This document shows, piece by piece, positions 3,673 through 62,853 of a DNA stretch of 64,000 nucleotides (its first letter is position 1; every line of letters begins with the position of its first letter). Both the position numbers and the translations under genes were made by a program. A model generated the notes under the pieces. That model searched no databases, had not been told where the DNA came from, and saw nothing but the letters and a program-made list of their open reading frames with translations. The DNA is from Candidatus Peregrinibacteria bacterium (GTDB lineage: Bacteria > Patescibacteriota > Gracilibacteria > UBA1369 > LOWO2-01-FULL-3), in NCBI GenBank assembly GCA_030592015.1, contig JAUUZY010000004.1, positions 6,905-70,904 of the forward strand. The letters are read 5' to 3'.

Positions 3673-4439
3673 TTATTTTATTCAACAATAAGTTCATCAC
3701 AAAAGCCAACGCGAAAATTTCGTTATTTTCCGAAGCTGTCATGTATGGCTATGGAGTTTTTGAAACAGTCAGAACCCACGACAAAAAAATATTCAAAGGC
3801 AAAGAACATACAAACAGACTTTTTCAGTCAGCAAAACTTCTAAAACTAAAAATAAAACACAAAAAGCCGGAAATTCTAAAAATGATGGAAAAAGTGGCAA
3901 GGAAATCTCCACACAAGAATCAAAAAATAAAAGTAATAGCTATAGAAGAGGGGATTTACATAATTTCAACAAAAGCCCCAATCTACAAAAAACTCAAAGA
4001 AAAAGGGGTCAGCTGCAAAACTATAGTAGCGCACAGAGAGCTACCCAAAGCGAAATCCTTATCCTATCTAAGCTCATACATGAGCCACAAAGAAGCGACA
4101 AAGTCCGGATACTATGAAGCTATACTCATAGACGAAAAGGGAGAAGTATACGAAGGAGCATATTCAAACATATTTTGGTTCAAAGGAAATACACTTTGTA
4201 CACGAAAGGAAGAAGTCCTCGAGGGCATAATACGACAAACAATAATCAACAATTCTCCATTCAAAATCAAATTCAAAAATATCAAAATAAAAGAACTTTT
4301 AAAGAAAAAGGAGATTTTCATGACCCAAAGCGTGAGCGAAATATTGCCAATTACAAGAATAGACAAAACAAAAATAGGAAACGGCAAAGTAGGGGAGAAG
4401 ACAAAGGAAATAATTGATATCTTCAAACAAGTTAAGTAA
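3669..4439 (+). CDS. pabC: aminodeoxychorismate lyase / class IV aminotransferase family
   Basis: A 256-aa fold-type IV PLP protein (GYGVFETVRT...H..RL; lysine region KSLSYL; EGIIRQ). ATGA overlap with pabB. Function is assigned from operon context. Confidence 0.65.
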   Translation: MIILFNNKFITKANAKISLFSEAVMYGYGVFETVRTHDKKIFKGKEHTNRLFQSAKLLKLKIKHKKPEILKMMEKVARKSPHKNQKIKVIAIEEGIYIISTKAPIYKKLKEKGVSCKTIVAHRELPKAKSLSYLSSYMSHKEATKSGYYEAILIDEKGEVYEGAYSNIFWFKGNTLCTRKEEVLEGIIRQTIINNSPFKIKFKNIKIKELLKKKEIFMTQSVSEILPITRIDKTKIGNGKVGEKTKEIIDIFKQVK

Positions 4440-4464
4440 AATACAAAAAAATAACAAAAAGCAC

Positions 4465-5847
4465 ATGACAGATTCAAAAAAAGGTTCATCAATTTTTAAA
4501 AGGCTAGCAATTGTGTTACTGGCATCTTTCATATTAACCTTGGTAACTTCAGCTGGCACAACATTGGCAGCTGCTGACACCTGCTATTGGGTAGGATTGG
4601 CCGATGCAAACTGGGACGTTGCAGGAAACTGGGACACTACTAGTTCAGGAGGGGGAGGGGGTGACTGCGATGGAGGGACATATCCAGGATCAGACGATTC
4701 CGCAATTTTTGACTCCGGTAACATTGCAAATGCAACCCTAAACGTGAACACTGTAGGGACAATGACTATGTCATCAGGATTTACGGCATCAGTTACAGCA
4801 AGTTATGCAGGAACAACAACATTTAGTGGAGTTTTTACACAGGCAGATGGAACATTCAATGCAGGAAGCAATACTGTAAGCTATAACAGCACCATAAACC
4901 TTACAGGAGGAACATATGATGTCGAAACAGCAACACTTATATCAAATTACACAGGTGCCAATGCAGTTTATATGAACGGAGGCACACTAGACGCTTCAAC
5001 AGCAGACGTAGATCTGAATGGAACAGCCTCTGCTGCCAGCTATCTTTTTAATATAGACAATGGGACCTTCACAGCTCCAGGAAGTGCTAATAGTTTTACT
5101 ACTGCCGACAGTATAGACATAACTCCACCAGGCATATTTGATGCAAACAATGGAACCATTATATTTGATGGCACAGATCTAACAACCTTAGTTGGTGCAG
5201 AGACAACCTTCCATAATATAACATTTAGTATGCCAAGTGGAATTGCACGAACATACTGGCCTATAACTCTTGATGGAGATTTCAAAATAACAAGTAGTGT
5301 CTATGAAGGAAACACATTTGCAATAAATTTAGGAGGAGACTTCATAACAAGTGGAACAGGCTCATTCACACCAAATACAAGTACAATAAACATGAACGGG
5401 ACAGATCAAGCAATTTACGGAACTAATAGCTTCTATAACCTAACAAAGCAAACTGCAGGAACATGGGAATTTGAGGCTGGAGAAACACAAACAGTAACAG
5501 GAACATGGACTGCAGAAGGGACAGGAATAGAAGCTGGAGCACTATTTCTTCGCTCAACAGTGTCAGATAGTACGTGGACCATAAACCCACAAAGCACAAG
5601 AACCCTAGATTATATAGACGTTAAAGACAGCATCAACAGCAATGCAGCAGAAATCACATTATCAGGAAAATATGCCAATGATTCAGGAACTAATACAAAC
5701 TGGAACTTTGCAAGCTCCATTCCTTTTCAAGCAGGAGCTGCACTAATTCCAGAATTCTCTACATACATGCTAATGATCACATTCCTAATCGGAATGGGAA
5801 TGATTCAGAAAAAATTCAAACCTGAAATTAAACAAACAAGGTACTAA
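4465..5847 (+). CDS. secreted repeat (beta-helix-like) surface protein with a PEF-type C-terminal sorting signal
   Basis: ATG at 4465 gives a signal peptide (MTDSKKGSSIFKRLAIVLLASFILTLVTSAGTTLAAA). The mature protein begins DTCYWVG..ANWDVAGNWD, resembling the start of autotransporter-associated beta-strand repeat proteins. The body is Gly/Thr/Asn-rich. The C-terminus IPEFSTYMLMITFLIGMGMIQKKFK has motif, TM helix and basic patch. Confidence 0.65.
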   Translation: MTDSKKGSSIFKRLAIVLLASFILTLVTSAGTTLAAADTCYWVGLADANWDVAGNWDTTSSGGGGGDCDGGTYPGSDDSAIFDSGNIANATLNVNTVGTMTMSSGFTASVTASYAGTTTFSGVFTQADGTFNAGSNTVSYNSTINLTGGTYDVETATLISNYTGANAVYMNGGTLDASTADVDLNGTASAASYLFNIDNGTFTAPGSANSFTTADSIDITPPGIFDANNGTIIFDGTDLTTLVGAETTFHNITFSMPSGIARTYWPITLDGDFKITSSVYEGNTFAINLGGDFITSGTGSFTPNTSTINMNGTDQAIYGTNSFYNLTKQTAGTWEFEAGETQTVTGTWTAEGTGIEAGALFLRSTVSDSTWTINPQSTRTLDYIDVKDSINSNAAEITLSGKYANDSGTNTNWNFASSIPFQAGAALIPEFSTYMLMITFLIGMGMIQKKFKPEIKQTRY

Positions 5848-15447: not shown

Positions 15448-16800
15448 CTAGGCATTGTCAATTTCCGCCCAAAAATCATTAGTTTTTCTAGATTCAAAGC
15501 TTGAATGGACAAATTGAGCCTTTGGCGAATTCTTTGTCATAGTTATAACATTCAAGCTCTCAACTTTGTCCTCAATAGACAAGGTATCCGCAACAGCAAG
15601 CACCTCAACCAAAGAAGTTAATACCCTTCTGTCGACAGAGGACAAGCTATATCCCCTATCCTTCCCCTCCCCAACTAGATTTTCGGCTAAAGAAACAAGT
15701 TCTTCATGATTAATCTTAGATATATTGGTATCAGGAATTCGTTTAATACTTTCCGTAACATAAGCGTCTAAATGGCACTTCCCTGCTGCAACAACGATGT
15801 CCTCAGCAGAAGTATATGGCCCTAAATCATCACCAGAGTACGGGGTTTTTAAAGTAAAGCTATAACTAACACTTCCGGAAGAGTCAACTTCCTTATAAAT
15901 ATCGATAGGAAAAAAGAAATCCCCTGCCTCAATAGTCGCTTTATCTTTATGAAATTCTATTTTATAAGAAGAACTATCATGAACACCTTGCCCAATACTA
16001 GACTCTATAGCTTGCCTCTGCTCTGCCACATCCTCAATAGGCTGAGAATAAGATCTAACTTCAGCAACAACAATAACTTCTTCTTCTTCTTCTTCTTCCT
16101 CTTCCTCCTCAAAATCAAGAACCACGTCCTCTTCCCCAATTTCCTGCCATATCTCCAAAACCTCCTGGACTTCTTCCTCATCCTCAGACCTTGCAAGCTC
16201 CTCATCAACAAGGAGATTCAATTGTTTTGTATATTCCTCAGAGGAAATATCTTCATTAGCATTCAAAACCTTCAATTTCTCCATAACTATTCCACGAAAC
16301 TTAAGCATTTTCCCACCCCTAATCAACAATTCACCATCATCACTCTTAGAATATTCTTCACTTTTGCTATACGACCTAACAAGGAACTTCAATAACTTTT
16401 GCTCAGCTCTAAACCTTTTAAAAGCAACATCAAAATACACTTCACCATCCCCTTCTCCAGCAACTTCACCCTTCCAATACTTAGTTAATACAACATTCTT
16501 AAATTGAGCAAACTCAGCTTTATCACCAGCTTCCATAGCCCCATCAAATTGCTTTTTTAGGACCTCATTGGAATATATTTCATCCAATAGCTCAGGACGA
16601 AACCCAGGAAAAGCATCAAGCTTTGAAACAATTCTCAAATAAGGATTTGCCTCAAGGCTGGCTAAGTGCTCAACAGTTTCTTCATCAGTATCCTTAAGAT
16701 CCAACTTAAAACTATCAGAAAAGATTTGTGAATCACCTACAAAAGATGGCAATACCTCCCGATCGCTCACTCCATCAGGCAATTTTCCAAAATCATTCAT
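15448..16800 (-). CDS. hypothetical, strongly acidic cytoplasmic protein with a poly-Glu run
   Basis: A 450-aa ORF with coding-strand composition like neighbouring genes. It has no TM segment or signal peptide. I recognise no family. Confidence 0.5.
   Translation of the reverse strand: MNDFGKLPDGVSDREVLPSFVGDSQIFSDSFKLDLKDTDEETVEHLASLEANPYLRIVSKLDAFPGFRPELLDEIYSNEVLKKQFDGAMEAGDKAEFAQFKNVVLTKYWKGEVAGEGDGEVYFDVAFKRFRAEQKLLKFLVRSYSKSEEYSKSDDGELLIRGGKMLKFRGIVMEKLKVLNANEDISSEEYTKQLNLLVDEELARSEDEEEVQEVLEIWQEIGEEDVVLDFEEEEEEEEEEEVIVVAEVRSYSQPIEDVAEQRQAIESSIGQGVHDSSSYKIEFHKDKATIEAGDFFFPIDIYKEVDSSGSVSYSFTLKTPYSGDDLGPYTSAEDIVVAAGKCHLDAYVTESIKRIPDTNISKINHEELVSLAENLVGEGKDRGYSLSSVDRRVLTSLVEVLAVADTLSIEDKVESLNVITMTKNSPKAQFVHSSFESRKTNDFWAEIDNA
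16078..16110 (-). repeat. in-frame GAA/GAG trinucleotide run encoding about 11 consecutive Glu
   Basis: The plus strand reads ttcttcttcttcttcttcttcctcttcctcctc. Confidence 0.9.
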
Positions 16801-17943: not shown

Positions 17944-19653
17944 CTACAACTGTTTAAGCATATACGTACCATCAAGCTTATAGCCCTTTTTTACATAGTA
18001 TTCACGAGTACCAATCCCGGCAATAACAGCAATTCTTTTGTAAGAATGTTTAGATGCAAGGTTTTCAGCCTCCTTCATCAACTTAGTCCCCCATCCAACA
18101 TGCTGCTTTTTATTTCCATCACTTTTACCAACTGCAATTTGTTGACCATAAACATGAACTTCCCTGATCAAAGCCGCATTATTAATTTCTTTAATAAAAG
18201 TCTCAGCAGGAAACCTCAATCGCAAAAGAGCAATCAACTTATCCTTCTCTATATCTTCATAGGACAAAAAGAATTCTTTCCCTCCACTCGCATCATATTC
18301 ACGAATCACTAATTTAATATTCTCAGGATTAACCTCTCCATCTTTTATCTCCCTTGTACGAATATCTCGGCATGGAATCCCCTCTTCCTCCATTCTTTTC
18401 TCCAAAACCTGCCTAATATTAGACATTTTAAATCCTGACTCAACATCCTCCGCAGGAATATCTCTCGCCACCCTATCAATACGACACCACTCAGGCACAG
18501 ATTTCATTTCCTCAAACAAAACATCCTCCAGAGTTGCATCATCATATGGCTTGTACTCCCCTTTCCTGAAGGAAATAGCCAAAGTGGATTTTGGCACAAC
18601 CACACAAGGATAGAGCTTTAAATAATCCGGCTGATATGCAGGACCTTCAAACAATTCAGCAACCATCCTTTTATCCAAATCAACCGTAGTTCCAGGCAAA
18701 TTTGGCATCATATGATAGCTCATTTTGAATCCAGCATCTTTTAGCAATTTCGTCGCATTTCGCACAGACTCCAAATCATGCCCACGCTTGGTCAGCTCCT
18801 GAACCTTGTCATCCGTAGTCTGCACCCCCATCTCTATCTTTGTAATTCCAAGCCTACGCATTCTTCTCACCTCAGACTTATTTATAAAGTCAGGTCTAGT
18901 CTCTACGTTTATTCCAATACATCGAACCTTTGCCATCTCATTTGTCTTCACAACCTCATTCCAAGTCAATTTATTTTTATTCAAACTCTTCAAAACCACA
19001 GTACTGACTTCATCTACCCCATATGGACTGGAAATTAAATTTTTCTTCACCAAATTTTCCATCTTATCAGTACGCTTATCCTCAATCTGCTCAGAAAACT
19101 CATTCATCGCCTGCAAACACCTCTTTAGAAACCACGTTTGATATTTTTTGGGATAAGCACTCCATGTTCCACCCAAAACTCTCAACTCAACCTTTGAAAC
19201 TTCATGCCCCGTCATTGCCAAAGCCTTCAAACGAACAAATACCTGCGTGTATGGATTAAACCTCTGACGAAATCCTCTTTGAGCAGCCGGCTGGCTAGGA
19301 AGATAACTCTTTGGCATACGCAAATCAGTAGGACAGTAAACACATTTCCCCGGACAGGCATACGGCTTCATCAAAACAGTCAAAGGCGCCACACCACTCA
19401 TCGTTCGTACACTTCTTTTCTGAATCAAACCCAAGAGTTCTCTATTCGGACTAATCTTCTTTTCTTTTAAAAGATCATTATAGGCCTTAACAAAATAAAG
19501 ATTATGAAATATACGCCCCTTATGCTCTTTTATCACAGAATTTCTAAATTTCTCAAAAGCAGAGCGGTTTTTGAAAGTTTTTTCCGCCGCTCGTTCAATG
19601 ATTATCCTTGCCAATTTTTGATGATCCTCCAGATCAATTTTCGAAAAATCCAT
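17944..19653 (-). CDS. elp3: Elp3-family radical SAM / GNAT acetyltransferase (tRNA U34 carboxymethylation enzyme homolog)
   Basis: 569 aa. A radical-SAM cluster motif CPGKCVYCP is followed by SYLPSQPAAQRG, with a central TIM-barrel region (RIEMGVQT-like KIEMGVQTTDD). The C-terminal GNAT has QHVGWGTKLMKEAE. This architecture is diagnostic of Elp3. Confidence 0.85.
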   Translation of the reverse strand: MDFSKIDLEDHQKLARIIIERAAEKTFKNRSAFEKFRNSVIKEHKGRIFHNLYFVKAYNDLLKEKKISPNRELLGLIQKRSVRTMSGVAPLTVLMKPYACPGKCVYCPTDLRMPKSYLPSQPAAQRGFRQRFNPYTQVFVRLKALAMTGHEVSKVELRVLGGTWSAYPKKYQTWFLKRCLQAMNEFSEQIEDKRTDKMENLVKKNLISSPYGVDEVSTVVLKSLNKNKLTWNEVVKTNEMAKVRCIGINVETRPDFINKSEVRRMRRLGITKIEMGVQTTDDKVQELTKRGHDLESVRNATKLLKDAGFKMSYHMMPNLPGTTVDLDKRMVAELFEGPAYQPDYLKLYPCVVVPKSTLAISFRKGEYKPYDDATLEDVLFEEMKSVPEWCRIDRVARDIPAEDVESGFKMSNIRQVLEKRMEEEGIPCRDIRTREIKDGEVNPENIKLVIREYDASGGKEFFLSYEDIEKDKLIALLRLRFPAETFIKEINNAALIREVHVYGQQIAVGKSDGNKKQHVGWGTKLMKEAENLASKHSYKRIAVIAGIGTREYYVKKGYKLDGTYMLKQL

Positions 19654-19722
19654 ATACTATTATTAGCCCGCGAATTTTACCATATCTATGCCATTTTACG
19701 AAAGATTGATATAATAAAAATA

Positions 19723-20400
19723 ATGAATAAGAAAACCGCAAAAAAATTGCTAAAAAAAGTTGTCGAAGATTACAACAGTATTTCTGATGACTTCAATACA
19801 ACCAGACAGTACGACTGGAAAGAATTCGAGTCCTTTCTTCCACATATCAAAAACAATCAAAAGATTGCCGACCTTGGATGTGGGAATGGGCGCTTCTACA
19901 AGTACATTAACAACAAGAGAGACATCTCGTATTTAGGAATCGACAACAGCAAAGGTCTTCTGGAAAAAGCGAGAAAAGCACACAAAGCAGAATTTATCGA
20001 AGGAGATCTATTGAGTATTCCCCTAGCAAACGAAAATATAGATATAGCCATAGCAATTGCATCATTTCACCACATTCCATCAAAAGAATTAAGAGTAAAA
20101 TCACTAAAAGAGATCAAGCGCATATTGAAAAAAGACGGAAAATTTATATTAACTGTTTGGAACCTCTTTCAGCCAAGATATAAAAAATATATTTGGCAAG
20201 CAGTACTAAGATCTATACTATCTTTAGGTAAATATGACATGAGAGACACATTCATCCCATGGGCAAAGACAGGAGTAAAAAGATACTATTACGCCTTCAA
20301 GGCAAAAGAGCTAAGGAAACTCCTAGAAGAAAACGGATTCGAAATACTTGAAGAAAAAATCAGAAGAAACATCACAATTATATGCAGGAAGAAGCAATAA
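19723..20400 (+). CDS. Trm9/ALKBH8-like class I SAM-dependent methyltransferase
   Basis: By eye it aligns along its length with yeast Trm9: YNSISDDFNTTRQYDW, DLGCGNGRF, IDIAIAIASFHHIPSKELRV, GKFILTVWNL, DTFIPW, RYYYAFKAKEL. The start is set at the ATG at 19723. The ORF-track extension from 19504 is antisense to elp3. Confidence 0.7.
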   Translation: MNKKTAKKLLKKVVEDYNSISDDFNTTRQYDWKEFESFLPHIKNNQKIADLGCGNGRFYKYINNKRDISYLGIDNSKGLLEKARKAHKAEFIEGDLLSIPLANENIDIAIAIASFHHIPSKELRVKSLKEIKRILKKDGKFILTVWNLFQPRYKKYIWQAVLRSILSLGKYDMRDTFIPWAKTGVKRYYYAFKAKELRKLLEENGFEILEEKIRRNITIICRKKQ

Positions 20401-25210: not shown

Positions 25211-25778
25211 TTAGTTTTTTTAAAATTAGTGGAATTTTTTTAAAGTCCTCAATGAGTACAGATTTTTTTCTGGGATCATATAAGGCGGCAGCAGGATGGT
25301 ACAATGGTAAGAAAACTTGTTTTTCCTGCCAAATCCCCTTAGTTCTCTTTGCCTGTCCATGTGCTTGAGAAATTTTCAAACCGGGAAGGAATCTATCCAT
25401 TGAATGTCTTCCTAAAGTGACTAAAAGCATCGGTTTTATACGCTTCACCTGAGCCTCCAAATAAGGCCAGCAACTTGCAACCTCCTCAACCAAGGGATCT
25501 CTATTAGCAGGCGGTCTGCATTTTACCACATTCGCAATATAAACGTCCTCTCTTTTCATACCAATCTCCGCCAAAAGCTCAGACAAAACTCTCCCCGCAG
25601 CACCCACAAAAGGCTTTCCTTGCAAATCCTCATCCTTACCGGGCCCTTCACCAATAAACATAACATCCGCATCCAAAGAACCATCACCGGGAACAACATT
25701 AGTTCTCGTTTTACAAAGATCGCATTTAGTACAAATCCTCATTTCTTCCTCAATTTTTTCAAATTCCGCTATCTTCAT
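25197..25778 (-). CDS. uracil-DNA glycosylase, family 4
   Basis: The CTKCDLC Fe-S cysteines, GEGPGKDEDLQGKPFVGAAG and HPAA motifs are present. Confidence 0.85.
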   Translation of the reverse strand: MKIAEFEKIEEEMRICTKCDLCKTRTNVVPGDGSLDADVMFIGEGPGKDEDLQGKPFVGAAGRVLSELLAEIGMKREDVYIANVVKCRPPANRDPLVEEVASCWPYLEAQVKRIKPMLLVTLGRHSMDRFLPGLKISQAHGQAKRTKGIWQEKQVFLPLYHPAAALYDPRKKSVLIEDFKKIPLILKKLNVTS

Positions 25779-26796
25779 GTCCAGAGTTTAAAGATTCCTT
25801 TTCTCCCTTAGAACGACTAACACTTACAATCCAGAAAATAAGACTAACAACAAATAAAGGCAGAGAATAAATTAAAACGCTCTTTGCAAGAGCACCAAAA
25901 AAGTGAGCAAAGAGATCAGTAAAGAAATTAATTTGCGCCATATCAGCAACCCCCTCTCCAAACCAATCAATAAAGAATGGAACCAAGAGGATTACAAGCA
26001 ACGTAGATGAAACCAGAAAAGAGGCAGAACAAATAGTTTTAGCCTCCCACTTCAGCACAGTCGAAAACGGCTTGAAAATCAAAAGCCCAATAAAAAGCAA
26101 CAAAGCAAACAAAACCCCGATACCAACAAAGAATGATCCACTTATAAAAGATTTTATAACAGGCATTGCATTACCATTAAAATCAAAAGGAACAAATAAA
26201 GAGAAGACAAATTCAGTAGGAAGCTTACTAAAAACATCCCTATCCAAAATCCCCTCAACCTTCTCAGCAAAATCTTCTCGCGACAGCACATCTCTAACCA
26301 CACAAGAATACCTATCAGTCACACCATCTACAAAAGCATCCACAGACAAATCAAGATCCTCACATTCAGCCAAAGTAGCATACATTCGATCAGAAACTTC
26401 TTTAGTAATTACATCATGATTTTTCTCAAACCAATCCAATGGAACAACAAGATTAAAATTACTCTCCTCGTCAACAGAAAAAGTACTGATTTGATCATAA
26501 ATTCCATCAATAATCAGACCCAAATCATCCTTGGAAATAACCTTTTTCATAATATCCGTAAACTCTTTCCTCTCAATCTCAGCAAATTGCGACAAATTTG
26601 CCTTAGAGGCTATTTCAGCAATAGAAAAATCATAAACAATATCCACAAACCGCTCATCATACAAATCCTTTGAAGTAAATGTATTATAAGACCCCCAAGA
26701 AAAAGCCAGAGGGACGGCCAAAAGAATAAATACAATTGCCAATACGAAAGCAAGAACCTTTCTAATCATTTCTAAATGCTTTAAAGCTGCAAACAA
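25759..26796 (-). CDS. membrane protein with a large extracytoplasmic domain, unknown function
   Basis: 345 aa: an N-terminal TM, a soluble acidic region of about 190 aa, then 4-5 C-terminal TM helices. Confidence 0.45.
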   Translation of the reverse strand: MFAALKHLEMIRKVLAFVLAIVFILLAVPLAFSWGSYNTFTSKDLYDERFVDIVYDFSIAEIASKANLSQFAEIERKEFTDIMKKVISKDDLGLIIDGIYDQISTFSVDEESNFNLVVPLDWFEKNHDVITKEVSDRMYATLAECEDLDLSVDAFVDGVTDRYSCVVRDVLSREDFAEKVEGILDRDVFSKLPTEFVFSLFVPFDFNGNAMPVIKSFISGSFFVGIGVLFALLLFIGLLIFKPFSTVLKWEAKTICSASFLVSSTLLVILLVPFFIDWFGEGVADMAQINFFTDLFAHFFGALAKSVLIYSLPLFVVSLIFWIVSVSRSKGEKESLNSGHEDSGI

Positions 26797-35196: not shown

Positions 35197-35976
35197 TTAG
35201 ATAATAAATTCCCCCTCAGAAATCTTCTCAGGAGTCCTCTGCCTCCTTCTATCCTTTAAATTGCTTATTTTTTTACGCAAAGCACTCCTCCAACCAAAAA
35301 GTCTCACCCTTTCACTAAATCTTAAATTTAAATTATTGAACAATTTATCACTCAGAGAATAAACACCGGAAGCAATGAATGGAGCCGCAAATACATCAAT
35401 CGAATAGTGAATATGCATCAGCAAAACGGTTGCAGCCTCCACAAAAGTTCCAGCAAGTAAAACCCACCTAAGTTTAGACTTTCTAAACAATAAAAACCCC
35501 ATAAATGGAACCGCTGTATGCCCAGAGAAAAACAAATCATTCCTAAAAATAAAATGAGAAAGCACATCTTCACCAGGGGCCGAAAGATCATAAAAATGCC
35601 CAAAAGGAGGACCAAAGTCAGTCAAAATAATAAATCCGGATCGCAAAAAATAAAGAATAGCAAAAGTCTTAAGAGCAAAAGGGATTATCTCAGGCTTAAC
35701 AAAAACAGGATAAATGATTACAAGAGCAACCAATCCATACATAACCCAGCTATAAAAAAACTCCATATTATAAGTAGGAATATTATCCAGAATAGCATCT
35801 CCAACAGAAATAAAAGTCTCACTATCATTGTAAACACTCGCATAATGATTAAGAAGAAACGCTGATGCCAACAAAATCAGGCCAACTAACAAAGAAATAT
35901 TAAAAGTTGAATCCTTGAGCAAGACCTTCCAATCCGATCCTAATTTTTTAAAATAAGTTCTAATCATTTTTTCCAT
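35197..35976 (-). CDS. PAP2_C / sphingomyelin-synthase-like membrane protein
   Basis: Multi-TM protein carrying FFSGHTAVPF and HIHYSIDVFAAP, which match the SGHT and HYxxDV motifs of the SMS/PAP2_C family. The start is set at ATG 35976 (alternative 35967). The ORF-track start at 36072 lies inside the upstream gene. Confidence 0.55.
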   Translation of the reverse strand: MEKMIRTYFKKLGSDWKVLLKDSTFNISLLVGLILLASAFLLNHYASVYNDSETFISVGDAILDNIPTYNMEFFYSWVMYGLVALVIIYPVFVKPEIIPFALKTFAILYFLRSGFIILTDFGPPFGHFYDLSAPGEDVLSHFIFRNDLFFSGHTAVPFMGFLLFRKSKLRWVLLAGTFVEAATVLLMHIHYSIDVFAAPFIASGVYSLSDKLFNNLNLRFSERVRLFGWRSALRKKISNLKDRRRQRTPEKISEGEFII

Positions 35977-38476
35977 CTTCTTTCTTGTTCTCACTCCATC
36001 TTCGAATTTTATCAACAATAACTGAAGTTTTCTCAGAATAACGTTCACGAGAAACCTTAGTAACCATATCAATCCTATCTAAATCAAGCTCAATATTTGG
36101 AGGAGGCAAGGTCAGCAATGAAAAAGTCTTAGACGGCATACCATCAATAAGCAAACGCATATAAGCAGTATATTTACTTAGAGAAACTAAATCACTAGGC
36201 AAAATCTCTTCCGCAAATTGTTGAGATAAATAATCCGCATCATCAAAACCAACTTGGAAAGAGAAAATACTACCGACATTCCCAAAAACAGCATCCCTAA
36301 CCTCATCAGGCATCTGTGCAATATACTGATTTGCCATTGTCAGGTTAAGCTTGTACTTCCTAGCCTCAGACAAAATAGTCGCAAAGGATTCAGTAGCAAA
36401 ATTTTGAAACTCATCCACATACAAGTAAAAATCTTTCCGATCCTTTTCAGGAACATTCGCCCGACTCATAGCATCAAGCTGAAACTTTGTAATAAACATT
36501 GAACCAAGAAGCGCAGAATTATCTTCACCAATCTTACCTTTAGAAAGGTTCACAATAACAATCTTTCCCTTATCCATAGCAAATCTCAGATCCACGGAAC
36601 TTTTTGGCTGACCAACAATATTACGAATAGTTGGACTGGATAAAAACTGCCCAACCTTATTTAGAATCGGAGAAATCGCCTCAACTCTAAATCTATCCTG
36701 CATCTTTGCAAACTCATTAACCCAAAAAGATTTTACAACAGGATCCTGAATTTTTCTAACAACCTTTCTTCTATATTCATCATCCTGCAAAATTCTAGTA
36801 ATACCCAACATAGTAGTTCCGGGATATTCCAACAAAGCCAGAATAGTATTTCTCAAAATGTGTTCTAGCCTTGGCCCCCAACTATCAGCATAAATCTTCT
36901 TGAAAATACCGACCAAACCACTACAAACAATAGAGTTCAAAGCAGGATCAACATTTTCAAGCATATTAAATGCAACAGCATACTTAGTATCTGAAGGATC
37001 AATCAAAACAACATCATTTGTCCTATTTGAAGGAATAAAACTCAAAACCGCATCAGCCAAATCTCCATGAGGATCAATAATCCCAACACCCTTTCCACTA
37101 ACAATGTCCGAATAAATCATATTTTCAAGCAAAGTAGATTTCCCCATACCCGTTTTCCCAATCACATATAAATGTCTTCTTCTATCAATAGCTCTAACAC
37201 CAAAAACCTTCTGCATTCCTCTAAAATTTGTTTTACCTAAAATTGAAACAGGTTCCTCCCCTCCTTCAACAGGCAAATCCCCAGGCGGTTCGAGCTTCTT
37301 GCTTGAAACCCAGAAAATCGTAGGAGTCTTTACTGTCAGATTTGGAAAATGATAAATCGTAGCCAACTCCTCATTATTCATGACAAAACCATCCCGAATG
37401 ATTCTTTTTCTATACTTATTTATAATCCCGGTCCCTTCATAAAAATCCTTCATCTCAAATCCATTCAAGTGAGGAAAATTAAACTGCTTAAATGAAGCCA
37501 CAATCTCTCGAAGCTTTATTTTTGATTTCTGAATATTCTTTTTCTTTGGAAGATAAACAATTCGAATATTAGTTGAATAAAGCAAACGAACGACTTTATC
37601 CATAGCAGCATCTATACTGCTTTCCCTATCATGAGTACTCGAAACAAGCTCATCAACATCATCATTACGCGAATTCTGAGCACTTAATTTGAAATCAACA
37701 CCGGCCTTAATCAACATTCCCTGAAACCAAAAGACCACATAGACAGGAAAAAACACTATTCGAGGCCAAAGTTTTCTAGTAATAAAAGCCTTTGCATATG
37801 CTGACTTAAAAGACTCAACATTGGCAAAGACCCCCTTTTTCATAATCATCACACATTTGGAAAACACAACTCGCCACTTGTCAGACAGTGGACTAGCAAC
37901 AATCTGAATCCACGCCTGATCCTCAGGATCATCAAATTTCACTATAGAGGAAGTAATACCGGCCATAGGATCTAAAGCCACCCTCGTAAGTTTATCCTCA
38001 AACTGTGGATATCTCTTAATAGGAAATATATCCGGCCCCAAAAGTTTCAATTCAACAGCAATCGCATTCTCAATATTTCTGGGATTATATGAATAATCCA
38101 CAGAATCCTCTATCTCAACATCAGGATAATGAGCATAAATTTGCCCTTCCACCAAATTTCTCAGATTTTCAGGAAAAGCCACGTAAAACTTGATCATTCG
38201 TCCAATACTCGCAATCTCAAGACTGACATGATCACTACTATAGCCCTTTAACCTTTGCCAGAGACTAAATTTGGACTGAATACCATGCAAGGTCGCAAAA
38301 ATATGCTCAGCCGCAATAGGGCCAGTCTCATTCTCCTTAGATACTCTCACCTGAAGCACAGTATAGTCTTCCGCATACTTTCTTCTAATTTGTCGGAATC
38401 TAACAAAAACCGTTAGAAAAACTAACAAAAATATAAACGCAACTATACCGATCAAAACATAAGTAACCATTTCCAT
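35960..38476 (-). CDS. membrane-anchored FtsK/HerA/VirD4-superfamily ATPase (type IV coupling-protein-like)
   Basis: 838 aa: an N-terminal TM, an N-domain of about 400 aa, then Walker A GKTGMGKST, IIDPHGD, Walker B YLYVDEFQNF and ANQYIAQ. Confidence 0.6.
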   Translation of the reverse strand: MEMVTYVLIGIVAFIFLLVFLTVFVRFRQIRRKYAEDYTVLQVRVSKENETGPIAAEHIFATLHGIQSKFSLWQRLKGYSSDHVSLEIASIGRMIKFYVAFPENLRNLVEGQIYAHYPDVEIEDSVDYSYNPRNIENAIAVELKLLGPDIFPIKRYPQFEDKLTRVALDPMAGITSSIVKFDDPEDQAWIQIVASPLSDKWRVVFSKCVMIMKKGVFANVESFKSAYAKAFITRKLWPRIVFFPVYVVFWFQGMLIKAGVDFKLSAQNSRNDDVDELVSSTHDRESSIDAAMDKVVRLLYSTNIRIVYLPKKKNIQKSKIKLREIVASFKQFNFPHLNGFEMKDFYEGTGIINKYRKRIIRDGFVMNNEELATIYHFPNLTVKTPTIFWVSSKKLEPPGDLPVEGGEEPVSILGKTNFRGMQKVFGVRAIDRRRHLYVIGKTGMGKSTLLENMIYSDIVSGKGVGIIDPHGDLADAVLSFIPSNRTNDVVLIDPSDTKYAVAFNMLENVDPALNSIVCSGLVGIFKKIYADSWGPRLEHILRNTILALLEYPGTTMLGITRILQDDEYRRKVVRKIQDPVVKSFWVNEFAKMQDRFRVEAISPILNKVGQFLSSPTIRNIVGQPKSSVDLRFAMDKGKIVIVNLSKGKIGEDNSALLGSMFITKFQLDAMSRANVPEKDRKDFYLYVDEFQNFATESFATILSEARKYKLNLTMANQYIAQMPDEVRDAVFGNVGSIFSFQVGFDDADYLSQQFAEEILPSDLVSLSKYTAYMRLLIDGMPSKTFSLLTLPPPNIELDLDRIDMVTKVSRERYSEKTSVIVDKIRRWSENKKEDGKND

Positions 38477-50229: not shown

Positions 50230-50306
50230 TGGTGGGCGCTATAGGAGTCGAACCTATGACCTTCTGGGTGTAAACCAGACGCTCTAACCAACTGAGCTAA
50301 GCGCCC
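50230..50306 (-). tRNA. tRNA-Val (anticodon TAC), CCA encoded
   Basis: The reverse complement GGGCGCTTAGCTCAGTTGGTTAGAGCGTCTGGTTTACACCCAGAAGGTCATAGGTTCGACTCCTATAGCGCCCACCA folds as a cloverleaf with anticodon loop TTTACAC. Confidence 0.9.
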
Positions 50307-51111: not shown

Positions 51112-53850
51112 TTACTTTAAAACAGAATCTTTCGCAAACAATCTAAATTCAGATTGAACAAACCCCATACCAATTAACAAAGTAAGCATCAAGAGATAAA
51201 CACTAAATTCAGGAATTGGAACTGCCGCTAAAAATGGTGTAGCCCCTGTAAAATTCCAGTTTGTATTTCCACTAGAATCATTTGCAAACTGACCAGAAAC
51301 AACAATTTCTGAAGCATTGCTATTGTTACTATCCTTCACATCAATATAATTCAAAGTTCTTGTACTTTGAGGGTCTATAAACCACTCACTATCTGCAACT
51401 GAAGAACGTAAAAGCAAAGCCCCCGTCTGTGTACCTGTCCCCTCTGCAGTCCAAGTATTTGTTACAGTCTGGGTTGTTCCGGCTTCGAACTCCCAGGTTC
51501 CAGCAGTTTGACGAGTCAATTGGTAAAATGTATTCGATCCATCAATTGACTGAGCCACAGCATCTCCATCAAAAATCACTTCATTATTACCATGAGTAAA
51601 TGTTCCAATCGATTGCCTATCCCAATTCCCAGCAATATTCACAGTATTGCCACCAGCAAAAAAATCTCCATCAATAATGGTTAGATCACCATCAAGGTCT
51701 AATGCAGATTGCAAAGTGACATCATCCTGGCCACCATCACCTGAGACATTAATCTCTAAATTATTAAAAGCAATTCCAGCAACATTAAAATAAGATATTG
51801 CTGGGACAAATGTATCAAAAACTACAGTTCCACTATTATGTGTAAACACCCCACCGGTAATTATAAGATCATCAGCAACTTTCAACGTAGTAGGAGCAGA
51901 AAGCGAACCAGTAGTCATATTAAAACTAATGGAACTACCATTTAAATCTAATGTCGTAAGACCAATAGCATCAAACACACCACCAGCAATATCTAACGTA
52001 TCTCCAAAAGAAATGGTCGTCACAGTTTGACCATTAAAAGTTCCACCATCAATATCACCCCTATCACCAAAGCTTACAGAACTAGAACTACCAGCATTAA
52101 ACGTTGCAGTATCAGTTAAAGAATAATTACCACCAACTGAAAACCCACCAGAACCAACATCAAATGTAGTACTTCCAGATTGATCAAAAGTAGTAGCTAT
52201 CGACCAAGTACCAGCTCCCGTATTGTCTATATTACCAACAGCCAAGTCCAATGAATTAAAAGAAAAAGTACCAGTTCCAGCAGTATCAATATCTAAAGAA
52301 GCACTGTTAACCAAAACACTAGGCAAGGCAGCTCCTCCACTCGGCAAATCAAAATCATTATTTGAAAGTATATCCAATTGTCCTCCTCCTCCCTCAAAAC
52401 CATTCTCCACCACCACAGTACTTGTAGAAGCGGCAACAATCTTTGAACCACCACCAGAAGTTTGCAAAAATCCATCACTCAAAGTCAAAGTACCTGTAAC
52501 ATTTATCGTATCCCCACTAGAAATATATAAATAGTTTTGAGTAGGAACACCAAGCATATTCAAGGTCAAATTCTCAACAGTTAAAGAACCATTAACGTTC
52601 ATGCTTCGAGACCCCGGATAAAAACCATCAAACTCTATAATGCCATCACTAGAAGTAAATATTCCACCAGTCTCTACATCAAAGGTAGTCAACACATACA
52701 TAGTTCCTCCACTACCCGGAGCACTAAACGATCCAGAGTCCATATTAAAACTAACACCACCATTTAAATCTAAAGTAGTAAGGCCACTCATATCAACAGT
52801 AGCACCATTTACATCTAATGAGTCTCCAAAAGCAATGGTAGCTGCGGTTTCTCCATCAAAGGTTCCACCATCCAGATCCCCTCTTCCAGAAAAAGTTAAA
52901 GTTGTAGCACTACCAGCAAAAAATGAACCACCATTTTGTGTATAATCACCAGCAATGGAAAAATTTCCACCACCAGCATTACTAATAGTACCTGCGTCAA
53001 GTGTAAGCGTACTATCAAAGTTAAAAGTTCCTGCTCCTGCAGTACCAATTTCTAAAGATGCATTGTTTACAGTAATTACAGGCAAAGAAGTTCCCCCACT
53101 TGGTAAATTAAAATTTGTACTACCAGTAAAATCTATTTGCCCAGTTCCACCATCAAATCCAGTCCCAACAGATACAGACCCCGTAGACACAATTTTAGCA
53201 CCACTAGCCCCCTGAAAAAAACCATCAGTTAAAGTTAACGTTCCTGTAACAGTAACTGTGTCACTACTGCCGAAATAAAGATAATTTTGAGCAGGACTTC
53301 CCGTCAAAGATAAAGTAAGATTGGTGATAGACAAAGAAGAATCAACATTCATAGTTTGAGAGGAAGCAGAAAAAACATTAAAAGCAACAGTACCAGATTG
53401 ATCTACATAAGCTGCACCAGCCTCAACAGTAAAATTCTGAGCCAAAGAAAGAGTTTTTCCAATTCCAGGGGCCTTAAAAGTACCATCACTAAGAGTAAGA
53501 GAATACACATTCAAGTCATAAGAATTAAAATCAATAATACCTGTATATCCGGAAGAAACAGTAAAAACACTAGCTGAAACATTAGTATCAGCAGTCACAC
53601 TTTGTGTACTAGTAGTATTAAAAGTAACTGTATCAGCTGAATCAGGAATACTTCCTCCACAAGAAGTCCAGTTACCACTATCACTCCACGTAGAGGTAGT
53701 TCCATTCCAAACACATGAATCCGCAAAGGCAACAGAGACCGATACAAAAAATGACAATAGCAAAGAAACACTCAAATAGAATCCAACACGCTTAAAAATA
53801 TTCAACAACTTTATTTCAATTAGGATATATGCAAAAAAAAGATAACACAC
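51112..53850 (-). CDS. large secreted repeat (beta-helix-like) surface protein with a PEF-type C-terminal sorting signal
   Basis: A hydrophobic signal region ends AFADSCVWNG..WSDSGNW. Two large tandem modules follow. The C-terminal domain of about 140 aa is, by eye, roughly two-thirds identical to that of the 4465..5847 protein. The protein ends PIPEFSVYLLMLTLLIGMGFVQSEFR. The exact start is uncertain; in-frame TTG codons near 53800 are alternatives. Confidence 0.65.
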   Translation of the reverse strand: MCYLFFAYILIEIKLLNIFKRVGFYLSVSLLLSFFVSVSVAFADSCVWNGTTSTWSDSGNWTSCGGSIPDSADTVTFNTTSTQSVTADTNVSASVFTVSSGYTGIIDFNSYDLNVYSLTLSDGTFKAPGIGKTLSLAQNFTVEAGAAYVDQSGTVAFNVFSASSQTMNVDSSLSITNLTLSLTGSPAQNYLYFGSSDTVTVTGTLTLTDGFFQGASGAKIVSTGSVSVGTGFDGGTGQIDFTGSTNFNLPSGGTSLPVITVNNASLEIGTAGAGTFNFDSTLTLDAGTISNAGGGNFSIAGDYTQNGGSFFAGSATTLTFSGRGDLDGGTFDGETAATIAFGDSLDVNGATVDMSGLTTLDLNGGVSFNMDSGSFSAPGSGGTMYVLTTFDVETGGIFTSSDGIIEFDGFYPGSRSMNVNGSLTVENLTLNMLGVPTQNYLYISSGDTINVTGTLTLSDGFLQTSGGGSKIVAASTSTVVVENGFEGGGGQLDILSNNDFDLPSGGAALPSVLVNSASLDIDTAGTGTFSFNSLDLAVGNIDNTGAGTWSIATTFDQSGSTTFDVGSGGFSVGGNYSLTDTATFNAGSSSSVSFGDRGDIDGGTFNGQTVTTISFGDTLDIAGGVFDAIGLTTLDLNGSSISFNMTTGSLSAPTTLKVADDLIITGGVFTHNSGTVVFDTFVPAISYFNVAGIAFNNLEINVSGDGGQDDVTLQSALDLDGDLTIIDGDFFAGGNTVNIAGNWDRQSIGTFTHGNNEVIFDGDAVAQSIDGSNTFYQLTRQTAGTWEFEAGTTQTVTNTWTAEGTGTQTGALLLRSSVADSEWFIDPQSTRTLNYIDVKDSNNSNASEIVVSGQFANDSSGNTNWNFTGATPFLAAVPIPEFSVYLLMLTLLIGMGFVQSEFRLFAKDSVLK
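51868..53436 (-). repeat. intragenic tandem duplication (two modules of about 250-270 codons)
   Basis: Unit A (aa 139-388) and unit B (aa 389-661) are collinear. Examples: QNYLYFGSSDTVTVTGTLTLTDGF versus QNYLYISSGDTINVTGTLTLSDGF, and LTTLDLNGGVSFNMDSGSFSAP versus LTTLDLNGSSISFNMTTGSLSAP. Confidence 0.8.
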
Positions 53851-62355: not shown

Positions 62356-62853
62356 ATGCAGTTCAAGGTACCACAAAACGTACAAAGAAAAGACACGATC
62401 ATAGGTCCCCTCACACTAAACCAATTAATAATCTTGGGAGTAGGTGGAGGACTAGCCTATGGCATCTATGTAGGGCTAATGAATGCCAATTATCTAGCAA
62501 AAGTATGGGTGCCACCTGTAGTTATAATTTCAGCCATAACTCTTGCATTCACATTCCTGACACCACTAAGCCTACCATTCCATAAATTCTTAATGAATTT
62601 CATGGAATATCACATTATCCCAAAAAAAAGAATTTGGATGCAAAGTACCGGGGCACCATTCATATCAACCCTAAACAAAAGAACAACAAAGAAAAAAGAG
62701 GAAAAAGTAGAAGACCCAAAGAAAAAACAAAAATCACTGGAAGAACTTACAGAAATACTGGACACACATGGTAAATCCGAGCTAAACAAAGAAGATAAAC
62801 ACGAAGCACTAAAAAGTATAATCAACGCAAACTACAAAAATAAACAAAAATAA
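62356..62853 (+). CDS. PrgI-family (VirB3-like) small membrane protein
   Basis: MQFKVPQNVQRKDTIIGPLTLNQLIILGVGGGLAYGIYV has the layout of PrgI/VirB3-like T4SS components (a conserved N-terminal motif and two TM helices). A Lys-rich tail follows. Confidence 0.5.
   Translation: MQFKVPQNVQRKDTIIGPLTLNQLIILGVGGGLAYGIYVGLMNANYLAKVWVPPVVIISAITLAFTFLTPLSLPFHKFLMNFMEYHIIPKKRIWMQSTGAPFISTLNKRTTKKKEEKVEDPKKKQKSLEELTEILDTHGKSELNKEDKHEALKSIINANYKNKQK

Follow-up and report, generated by a model that had tools for sequence, protein, structure and literature searches.

A head-to-head gene pair for Elp3 and a Trm9-like methyltransferase, conserved across Patescibacteria, is a candidate two-gene module for wobble-uridine modification

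Wobble-uridine modification of the 5-methoxycarbonylmethyluridine (mcm5U) type and the methyltransferase Trm9 are regarded as eukaryotic traits, with few archaeal cases. The bacterial enzyme with the closest chemistry is CmoM, which methyl-esterifies the side-chain carboxylate of the wobble uridine (U34). The MnmE/MnmG/MnmC and CmoA/CmoB/CmoM systems serve the same purpose, modification of U34 at C5, with unrelated enzymes. It is established that archaeal stand-alone Elp3 makes 5-carboxymethyluridine (cm5U34) on tRNA, and bacterial Elp3 shows tRNA-triggered hydrolysis of acetyl-CoA (PMC6367351, PMC13315578); Elp3 is present in ‘numerous bacteria’ (PMC13315578). The Elp3 and Trm9 genes are physically clustered in Sulfolobus solfataricus (PMC6144793), and Trm9 of Haloferax volcanii (HVO_1032) works with Trm112 (PMC6144793, PMC5372719). 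According to a 2017 review, Sulfolobales and Halobacteriales are the only archaea with Trm9, and no bacterial genes resembling Trm112-dependent methyltransferases are detectable (PMC5372719). Here we describe a divergent pair of genes for Elp3 and a Trm9-like methyltransferase in a 64,000-nucleotide stretch of DNA from a Candidatus Peregrinibacteria bacterium (the window).

We propose that the pair is a two-gene wobble-uridine module, in which Elp3 would make cm5U34 and the Trm9 homologue would then convert it to mcm5U34; from the sequences we put the probability of this reading at roughly 0.7. The window Elp3 belongs to the Elp3 family, the methyltransferase is specifically Trm9-like, active-site residues included, and the divergent pairing and co-variation of the two genes are conserved across Patescibacteria. 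The substrates, the product, the promoters and the independence from Trm112 are what we infer. The features of the locus are as follows.

17944..19653, minus strand: Elp3, an open reading frame (ORF) of 569 residues; homologue of the radical S-adenosylmethionine (SAM) and GNAT tRNA U34 cm5U synthase
19330..19356, minus strand: radical-SAM [4Fe-4S] motif CPGKCVYCP, Elp3 residues 100-108
18076..18105, minus strand: GNAT acetyl-CoA motif QHVGWGTKLM, Elp3 residues 517-526
19654..19722, no strand: divergent intergenic region of 69 nucleotides (nt), read directly from the sequence
19723..20400, plus strand: Trm9-like class I SAM-dependent methyltransferase of 225 residues; predicted to convert cm5U34 to mcm5U34
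19870..19890, plus strand: SAM-binding motif I DLGCGNG, methyltransferase residues 50-56
20068..20073, plus strand: HH dyad H116-H117 of the methyltransferase, equivalent to H115/H116 of Saccharomyces cerevisiae Trm9 (ScTrm9)

The window is bacterial: at its end stand a gene for 5S rRNA and the 3'-terminal part of a 23S rRNA gene of bacterial type; its G+C content is about 36%, and the standard bacterial code reads well. A mechanical ORF listing puts the start of the plus-strand methyltransferase ORF at 19504. Because the homologues are 217-239 residues long and begin with MxxKTA, we place the start at the ATG at 19723. With this start codon the genes lie head to head and their start codons are exactly 69 nt apart, the spacing on opposite strands that a first-pass annotation of the locus had given.

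That annotation had also read the methyltransferase as Trm9-like rather than generic or UbiE-like, and all the motifs it quoted are present: DYNSISDDFNTTRQYDW, DLGCGNG, HHIPSKELR, TVWN, DTFIPW and RYYY. Eukaryotic Trm9 is the best match of the window protein by sequence, by profile and by fold. Against solved structures, the single sequence finds Trm9 of Yarrowia lipolytica (YlTrm9; PDB 5cm2_Z) first (58.1 bits, E 8.9e-15; next match 47.5), in an alignment that spans residues 26-215, and a profile of 39 sequences finds it first again (79.7 bits, E 2e-21; next match 59.5). An 81-sequence family hidden Markov model (HMM) gives 110.9 bits to the same structure. In profile scoring Trm9 thus reaches 80-111 bits and other methyltransferases at most 60, a lead of 20-50 bits over every other solved methyltransferase; closeness to Trm9 was judged among solved structures. 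An AlphaFold (AF2) model of the protein has a predicted local distance difference test score (pLDDT) of 96, and Foldseek with this model returns Trm9 as the top match (E 3.4e-16, template-modelling score 0.81). The IMG automatic annotation names two of the homologues TRM9 and alkB family protein 8.

Other identities were considered and rejected. The family HMM gives just 12.1 bits (E 0.69) to E. coli CmoM. UbiE/MenG, BioC and the DVU_1556 family all fall far under their curated NCBIfam cutoffs (TIGR01934, 48 bits against 158; UbiE model, 50 against 216; BioC, 40 against 185; DVU_1556, 61.5 against 155), and the CmoA and CmoB models are likewise far under theirs.

As read from the alignments, we consider the conservation of active-site residues the strongest evidence for the likeness to Trm9. 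Alanine mutants of ScTrm9 at R29, D72, H116, W145, W168, R241, Y243 and N271 lose activity, and mutants at K31, R122, E148 and D270 keep it (Letoquart et al., PMC4678810); H116 is essential for catalysis (PMC4678810, Table 2). In an alignment of 82 sequences, comprising the window protein, 80 relatives and YlTrm9, the eight required residues correspond to R28, D74, H117, W146, W180, R187, Y189 and N216 of the window protein. The equivalents of R29, D72, H116, W145, R241 and N271 are present in 77-82 of the 82 sequences, and the W168 position is aromatic in 81. Within the HH dyad, H116 is kept in 78 and H117 in 80 (window numbering). The positions of K31, R122, E148 and D270, dispensable in yeast, are not conserved. 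In motif I, residues D50, G52, C53, G54 and G56 are invariant among 39 homologues, and DLGCGNG aligns with DIGCGNG of YlTrm9.

The comparison with the eukaryotic Trm9-Trm112 enzymes (S. cerevisiae, Y. lipolytica 5cm2, and the ALKBH8 domain of metazoa) shows a common class I fold and a shared set of residues (R29, D72, H115/H116, W145, W168, R241 and N271), at about 26% identity and in a bacterial host. The window protein differs in that its VW motif is followed by an additional helix, about 10 residues long. Eukaryotic Trm9 acts downstream of Elp3, as we propose for the window homologue, whose gene, unlike that of the eukaryotic enzyme, stands head to head with that for Elp3.

The pairing of the two genes was followed in a genome scan that started from the methyltransferase and used one genome per GTDB species. 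At least 404 relatives were found, and the best 80 loci were analysed. By record label these comprise Gracilibacteria (10), Peregrinibacteria or Peribacteria (13), ‘Patescibacteria group’ (13), Saccharibacteria (15), Parcubacteria or Paceibacterota lineages (13), Altimarinota (1), unnamed ‘bacterium’ (10), Pacearchaeota (1) and contigs of metagenome-assembled genomes labelled Gammaproteobacteria, probably mislabelled (4). Elp3 is found in 69 of the 80 loci; in 67 of these 69 independent genome loci it lies upstream on the opposite strand, mostly as the direct neighbour, so the divergent adjacency is more than chance. The sole pairs that are not divergent are a tandem pair (L010) and a pair on the same strand, 7.4 kb apart (L075). 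Three of the 11 loci without Elp3 end close to the methyltransferase gene, and in all 11 the methyltransferase keeps the Trm9 signature, bar conservative changes. The divergent adjacency holds down to 34% identity and across many Patescibacteria lineages. When metagenome contigs were searched from Elp3, the methyltransferase was present in 65/80 loci, and in 58/67 of those that extend 750 nt or more upstream of Elp3.

Elp3 is the only conserved neighbour of the methyltransferase. In an all-against-all clustering of ORFs from the 80 loci, no third partner such as Trm112, a thiolase or Kti12 emerged, and nothing except Elp3 recurs in more than 23 of them. The distance matrices of Elp3 and the methyltransferase correlate (r 0.69, Mantel p 0.001, 63 pairs), which is what co-inheritance of both genes predicts. 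The co-conservation called for by the first-pass annotation is therefore seen from either gene. Its assignment of the host to bacteria stands as well, and its view of a sporadic bacterial occurrence does not, the gene pair being conserved across Patescibacteria.

One of the 80 loci (L052, DAOPTN010000030.1, positions 233-2842) carries the same divergent pair on a short contig of 4.6 kb that is binned as Pacearchaeota (DPANN), with its Elp3 gene partly masked by Ns. It is either a hint of exchange between the candidate phyla radiation (CPR) and DPANN or a binning error.

Several observations weigh against the assignment of the methyltransferase to a Trm9-type pathway. Pfam matches are to the generic families Methyltransf_11, 25, 31 and 23 only, no NCBIfam model reaches its cutoff, and the Foldseek lead of Trm9 over other class I methyltransferases, many of which appear at similar E-values, is small and not discriminating. 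The position of ScTrm9 Y243 is kept in just 50 of the 82 sequences. The function of the family members is predicted from sequence and gene context. The Pfam and Foldseek results could be expected if the protein were a generic class I enzyme, either UbiE-like or with a protein or small molecule as its substrate, that neighbours Elp3 by chance; database names would fit this too, since NCBI calls the homologues ‘class I SAM-dependent methyltransferase’ only and IMG often calls them UbiE. This explanation is already disfavoured, and we regard it as very improbable: it does not account for the divergent adjacency down to 34% identity over so many lineages, the co-variation with Elp3, the profile lead of Trm9, the scores of UbiE/MenG, BioC and DVU_1556 far under their cutoffs, or the near-invariance of Trm9-specific residues outside the SAM-binding core. 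The earlier Elp3-Trm9 interpretation is supported.

The Elp3 of the window matches the NCBIfam ELP3 model TIGR01211 with 562 bits (cutoff 350), its residues 19-569 covering positions 3-522 of the 522 in the model, so that it is full length, as had been annotated. Its top PDB match is Elp3 of the archaeon Methanocaldococcus infernus (6ia8; 414 bits, E 8.8e-123), with which it aligns nearly end to end, including the KAT domain to the last residue. The alignment splits in the radical-SAM domain, at an insertion that makes the window protein about 42 residues longer there than M. infernus Elp3 (residues 189-230; 18964-19089, minus strand). Mammalian and yeast Elp3 structures score 334-351 bits. 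Both Elp3 motifs quoted in the first-pass annotation are present at the positions listed above. The cluster cysteines C100, C104 and C107 are invariant among 20 CPR Elp3 sequences, and the pattern CPG[KRN]Cx[YF]CP is kept across 63. Pfam finds Radical_SAM and Radical_SAM_C and, in the same scan, no GNAT family. The C-terminal GNAT domain is nevertheless borne out by the acetyl-CoA motif QHVGWG (residues 517-522), of which Q517, H518, G520 and G522 are invariant among the same 20 sequences, and by the alignment of QHVGWGTKLM with QHMGYGRMLM in the KAT domain of M. infernus Elp3.

The zinc motif CxCxxC is absent from the window Elp3, which has PCRDIRTREI instead (residues 425-436; 18346-18381, minus strand). 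M. infernus and most CPR Elp3 sequences keep C[KR]C[IV]RC, and the Peregrinibacteria-like clade of the window is without the triad. Because eukaryotic Elp3 also lacks it, the triad does not define the Elp3 family as a whole. Like the window protein, Elp3 of Dehalococcoides mccartyi (PDB 5l7j) comes from a bacterium, stands alone and combines a radical-SAM with a KAT domain. The window protein scores higher to M. infernus Elp3 (414 bits) than to the D. mccartyi protein (339 bits), carries at its N-terminus an archaeal-like extension, about 85 residues long and with many basic ones, that D. mccartyi Elp3 does not have, and belongs to a clade that, compared with D. mccartyi, has lost the zinc cysteines. 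In a neighbour-joining tree of 150 representatives, 63 CPR sequences and M. infernus Elp3, the CPR sequences do not form a single group but several, with unlabelled sequences between them. The tree suffers from saturated distances and from a scarcity of cluster names, a Chromera sequence being the only identifiable one.

Elp3 was historically annotated as a histone acetyltransferase, a name that persists in PDB entries, and one could suppose that it acts here as an acetyltransferase on proteins or other substrates rather than as a tRNA enzyme, with the methyltransferase serving an unrelated role. This seems to us extremely improbable, as tRNA specifically triggers acetyl-CoA hydrolysis by bacterial, archaeal and eukaryotic Elp3 (PMC6367351). 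The pairing with a Trm9 homologue is moreover what a tRNA pathway leads one to expect.

In the two-gene module that we propose, Elp3 alone, without Elp1, 2, 4, 5 and 6, would carboxymethylate C5 of U34 by means of its radical-SAM and acetyl-CoA (GNAT) domains, with wobble-uridine tRNAs as the predicted substrates. The Trm9 homologue would then use SAM to methyl-esterify the carboxyl group of cm5U34, giving mcm5U34. The archaeal systems likewise combine a stand-alone prokaryotic Elp3 with a Trm9 orthologue; they are known from few orders, in contrast to the many Patescibacteria lineages that carry the bacterial pair, and the likeness is drawn from descriptions, not from sequence comparison. The window contains one candidate substrate, a tRNA-Val(UAC) gene (50230-50306, minus strand), because this is the sole window tRNA with a wobble uridine; the remaining two are Leu(CAA) and Leu(GAG).

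The pair may act on the wobble uridine and yield an end product other than plain mcm5U, such as 5-methoxycarbonylmethyl-2-thiouridine (mcm5s2U) through thiolation, a further derivative, or the methylated form of another Elp3-dependent intermediate. In yeast, cm5U is processed to 5-carbamoylmethyluridine (ncm5U), mcm5U and mcm5s2U (PMC6367351), and the accumulation of ncm5U in trm9 mutants suggests extra steps (PMC3110198). The methyltransferase is missing from nine metagenome Elp3 loci whose upstream flank measures 2.8-4 kb (L096, L097, L100, L120, L123, L127, L137, L144 and L153), so that the products of Elp3 may differ among lineages. In some lineages without a Trm9-like gene beside Elp3 the pathway may end with cm5U or ncm5U, or the methyltransferase gene may lie at another place. 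For the paired genes we nevertheless judge a different end product unlikely, as R29, H116, R241 and N271, for which a role in placing the uracil ring and the cm5U carboxylate has been proposed, are conserved and no further gene is conserved beside the pair.

The proposal that the window enzyme makes mcm5U34 raises the matter of its activator. Characterised Trm9 enzymes, those of eukaryotes and of H. volcanii, depend on Trm112 as an obligate partner (PMC4678810, PMC6144793), and Trm112-family proteins are widespread in bacteria (PMC5372719). The hydrophobic patch by which YlTrm9 contacts Trm112 consists of V59, F78, V102, A110, P112 and F116. In the CPR family the V59 position is mostly K/R and the F78 position mostly D/K/E, so that two central contacts, in contrast to eukaryotic Trm9, are charged or polar in most members; the F116 position keeps a hydrophobic residue in 90% of the sequences, with D117 conserved. 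As the first-pass annotation had reported, no Trm112-like partner is visible in the window. A phmmer search with a single short query, E. coli YcaR, found none among all window ORFs of at least 35 residues or in related loci totalling 1.84 Mb. Pfam, run on 61 ORFs of the window, reported no Trm112 family, and in the 80 loci the pair has no conserved Trm112-like neighbour.

The charged V59 and F78 positions and the empty searches of the window and related loci suggest a stand-alone enzyme, without proving it, and the Trm9 homologue can probably dispense with Trm112 as activator. Alternatively, the module could operate as proposed with a Trm9 homologue that still depends on an activator of the Trm112 family, encoded in another part of the genome, of which the search covered 64 kb. 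The dependence of the characterised enzymes, the wide bacterial distribution of the Trm112 family and the retained F116 and D117 positions argue for such a partner, and the two altered central contacts and the negative searches argue against it; on balance we regard this alternative as rather unlikely, while giving it more weight than any of the others.

The two genes would be expressed from promoters placed back to back, which lie within the short intergenic region or overlap it, and the mRNAs are probably leaderless or near-leaderless. A consensus scan finds an extended -10 box, TGATATAAT, at 19707-19715, 7 nt ahead of the methyltransferase ATG, and a -10-like AATAAT on the minus strand, 5 nt ahead of the Elp3 ATG. 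A TATAAT box 6-7 nt ahead of the methyltransferase ATG recurs in four close relatives (L002, L003, L004 and L018), in which the gaps between the genes are just 22-52 nt. No Shine-Dalgarno sequence is visible in the window locus or in the intergenic regions of these relatives. From the spacing of these elements, transcripts may be leaderless, and the divergent promoters may interleave and reach into each other's coding starts. Promoter-like consensus matches in the intergenic region are no commoner than in shuffled sequence, a further point on the opposing side, and because the matches do not exceed chance we can only infer these promoters.

We speculate that decoding in the Patescibacteria as a whole relies on mcm5(s2)U34, which a stand-alone Elp3 and a Trm112-free Trm9 would supply in place of MnmE/MnmG. 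This broader idea is tentative, and we consider it possible rather than probable. In a tblastn search of 1.84 Mb of Patescibacteria DNA, E. coli MnmG gave no matches and MnmE one weak match to its GTPase domain, in a sample that has no power in this respect because universal controls gave 0-2 matches (atpD 1, yidC 2, rsmG 0 and rnpA 0).

Outside the pair, the biosynthetic content of the window is unusually rich for a CPR genome (74-4439, 32510-33613 and 44983-49307). It includes a folate cluster (FolP, PTPS, HPPK, FolE, PabA, PabB and PabC), the riboflavin genes RibE and RibH, and the purine genes PurB, PurE, PurC and PurA; IlvC, SHMT and 5-FTHF cyclo-ligase are encoded at other places. Four large ORFs have no Pfam match: 15448-16800 (minus strand; 450 residues, with a long acidic poly-Glu tract), 4414-5847 (plus strand; 477 residues), 25759-26796 (minus strand; 345 residues) and 51112-53850 (minus strand; 912 residues). 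An 838-residue HerA/VirD4/TraG-like ATPase (35960-38476, minus strand) and a PrgI-family protein (62356-62853, plus strand) look like components of a type IV secretion or conjugation-like system.

The kind of pathway is already known, because Elp3 occurs in many bacteria and clusters with Trm9 in S. solfataricus. Our search of the literature found none linking Elp3, Trm9 or tRNA modification with Patescibacteria or the CPR, and a conserved two-gene Elp3-Trm9 module across a bacterial radiation, possibly free of Trm112, appears to be undescribed. The prediction would improve the annotation of records that NCBI lists as ‘class I SAM-dependent methyltransferase’. If a Trm9 orthologue is indeed locked to Elp3 across the CPR, the pathway would extend to bacteria and bacterial Elp3 would gain a defined downstream partner. 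Mechanistic studies would gain a small Trm9 that may be independent of Trm112, and one would have to ask how split codon boxes are decoded in such reduced genomes. Should the speculation on a Patescibacteria-wide module hold, this group would be the chief reservoir of Trm9 among prokaryotes, and mcm5U-type wobble modification would be seen in bacteria for the first time.

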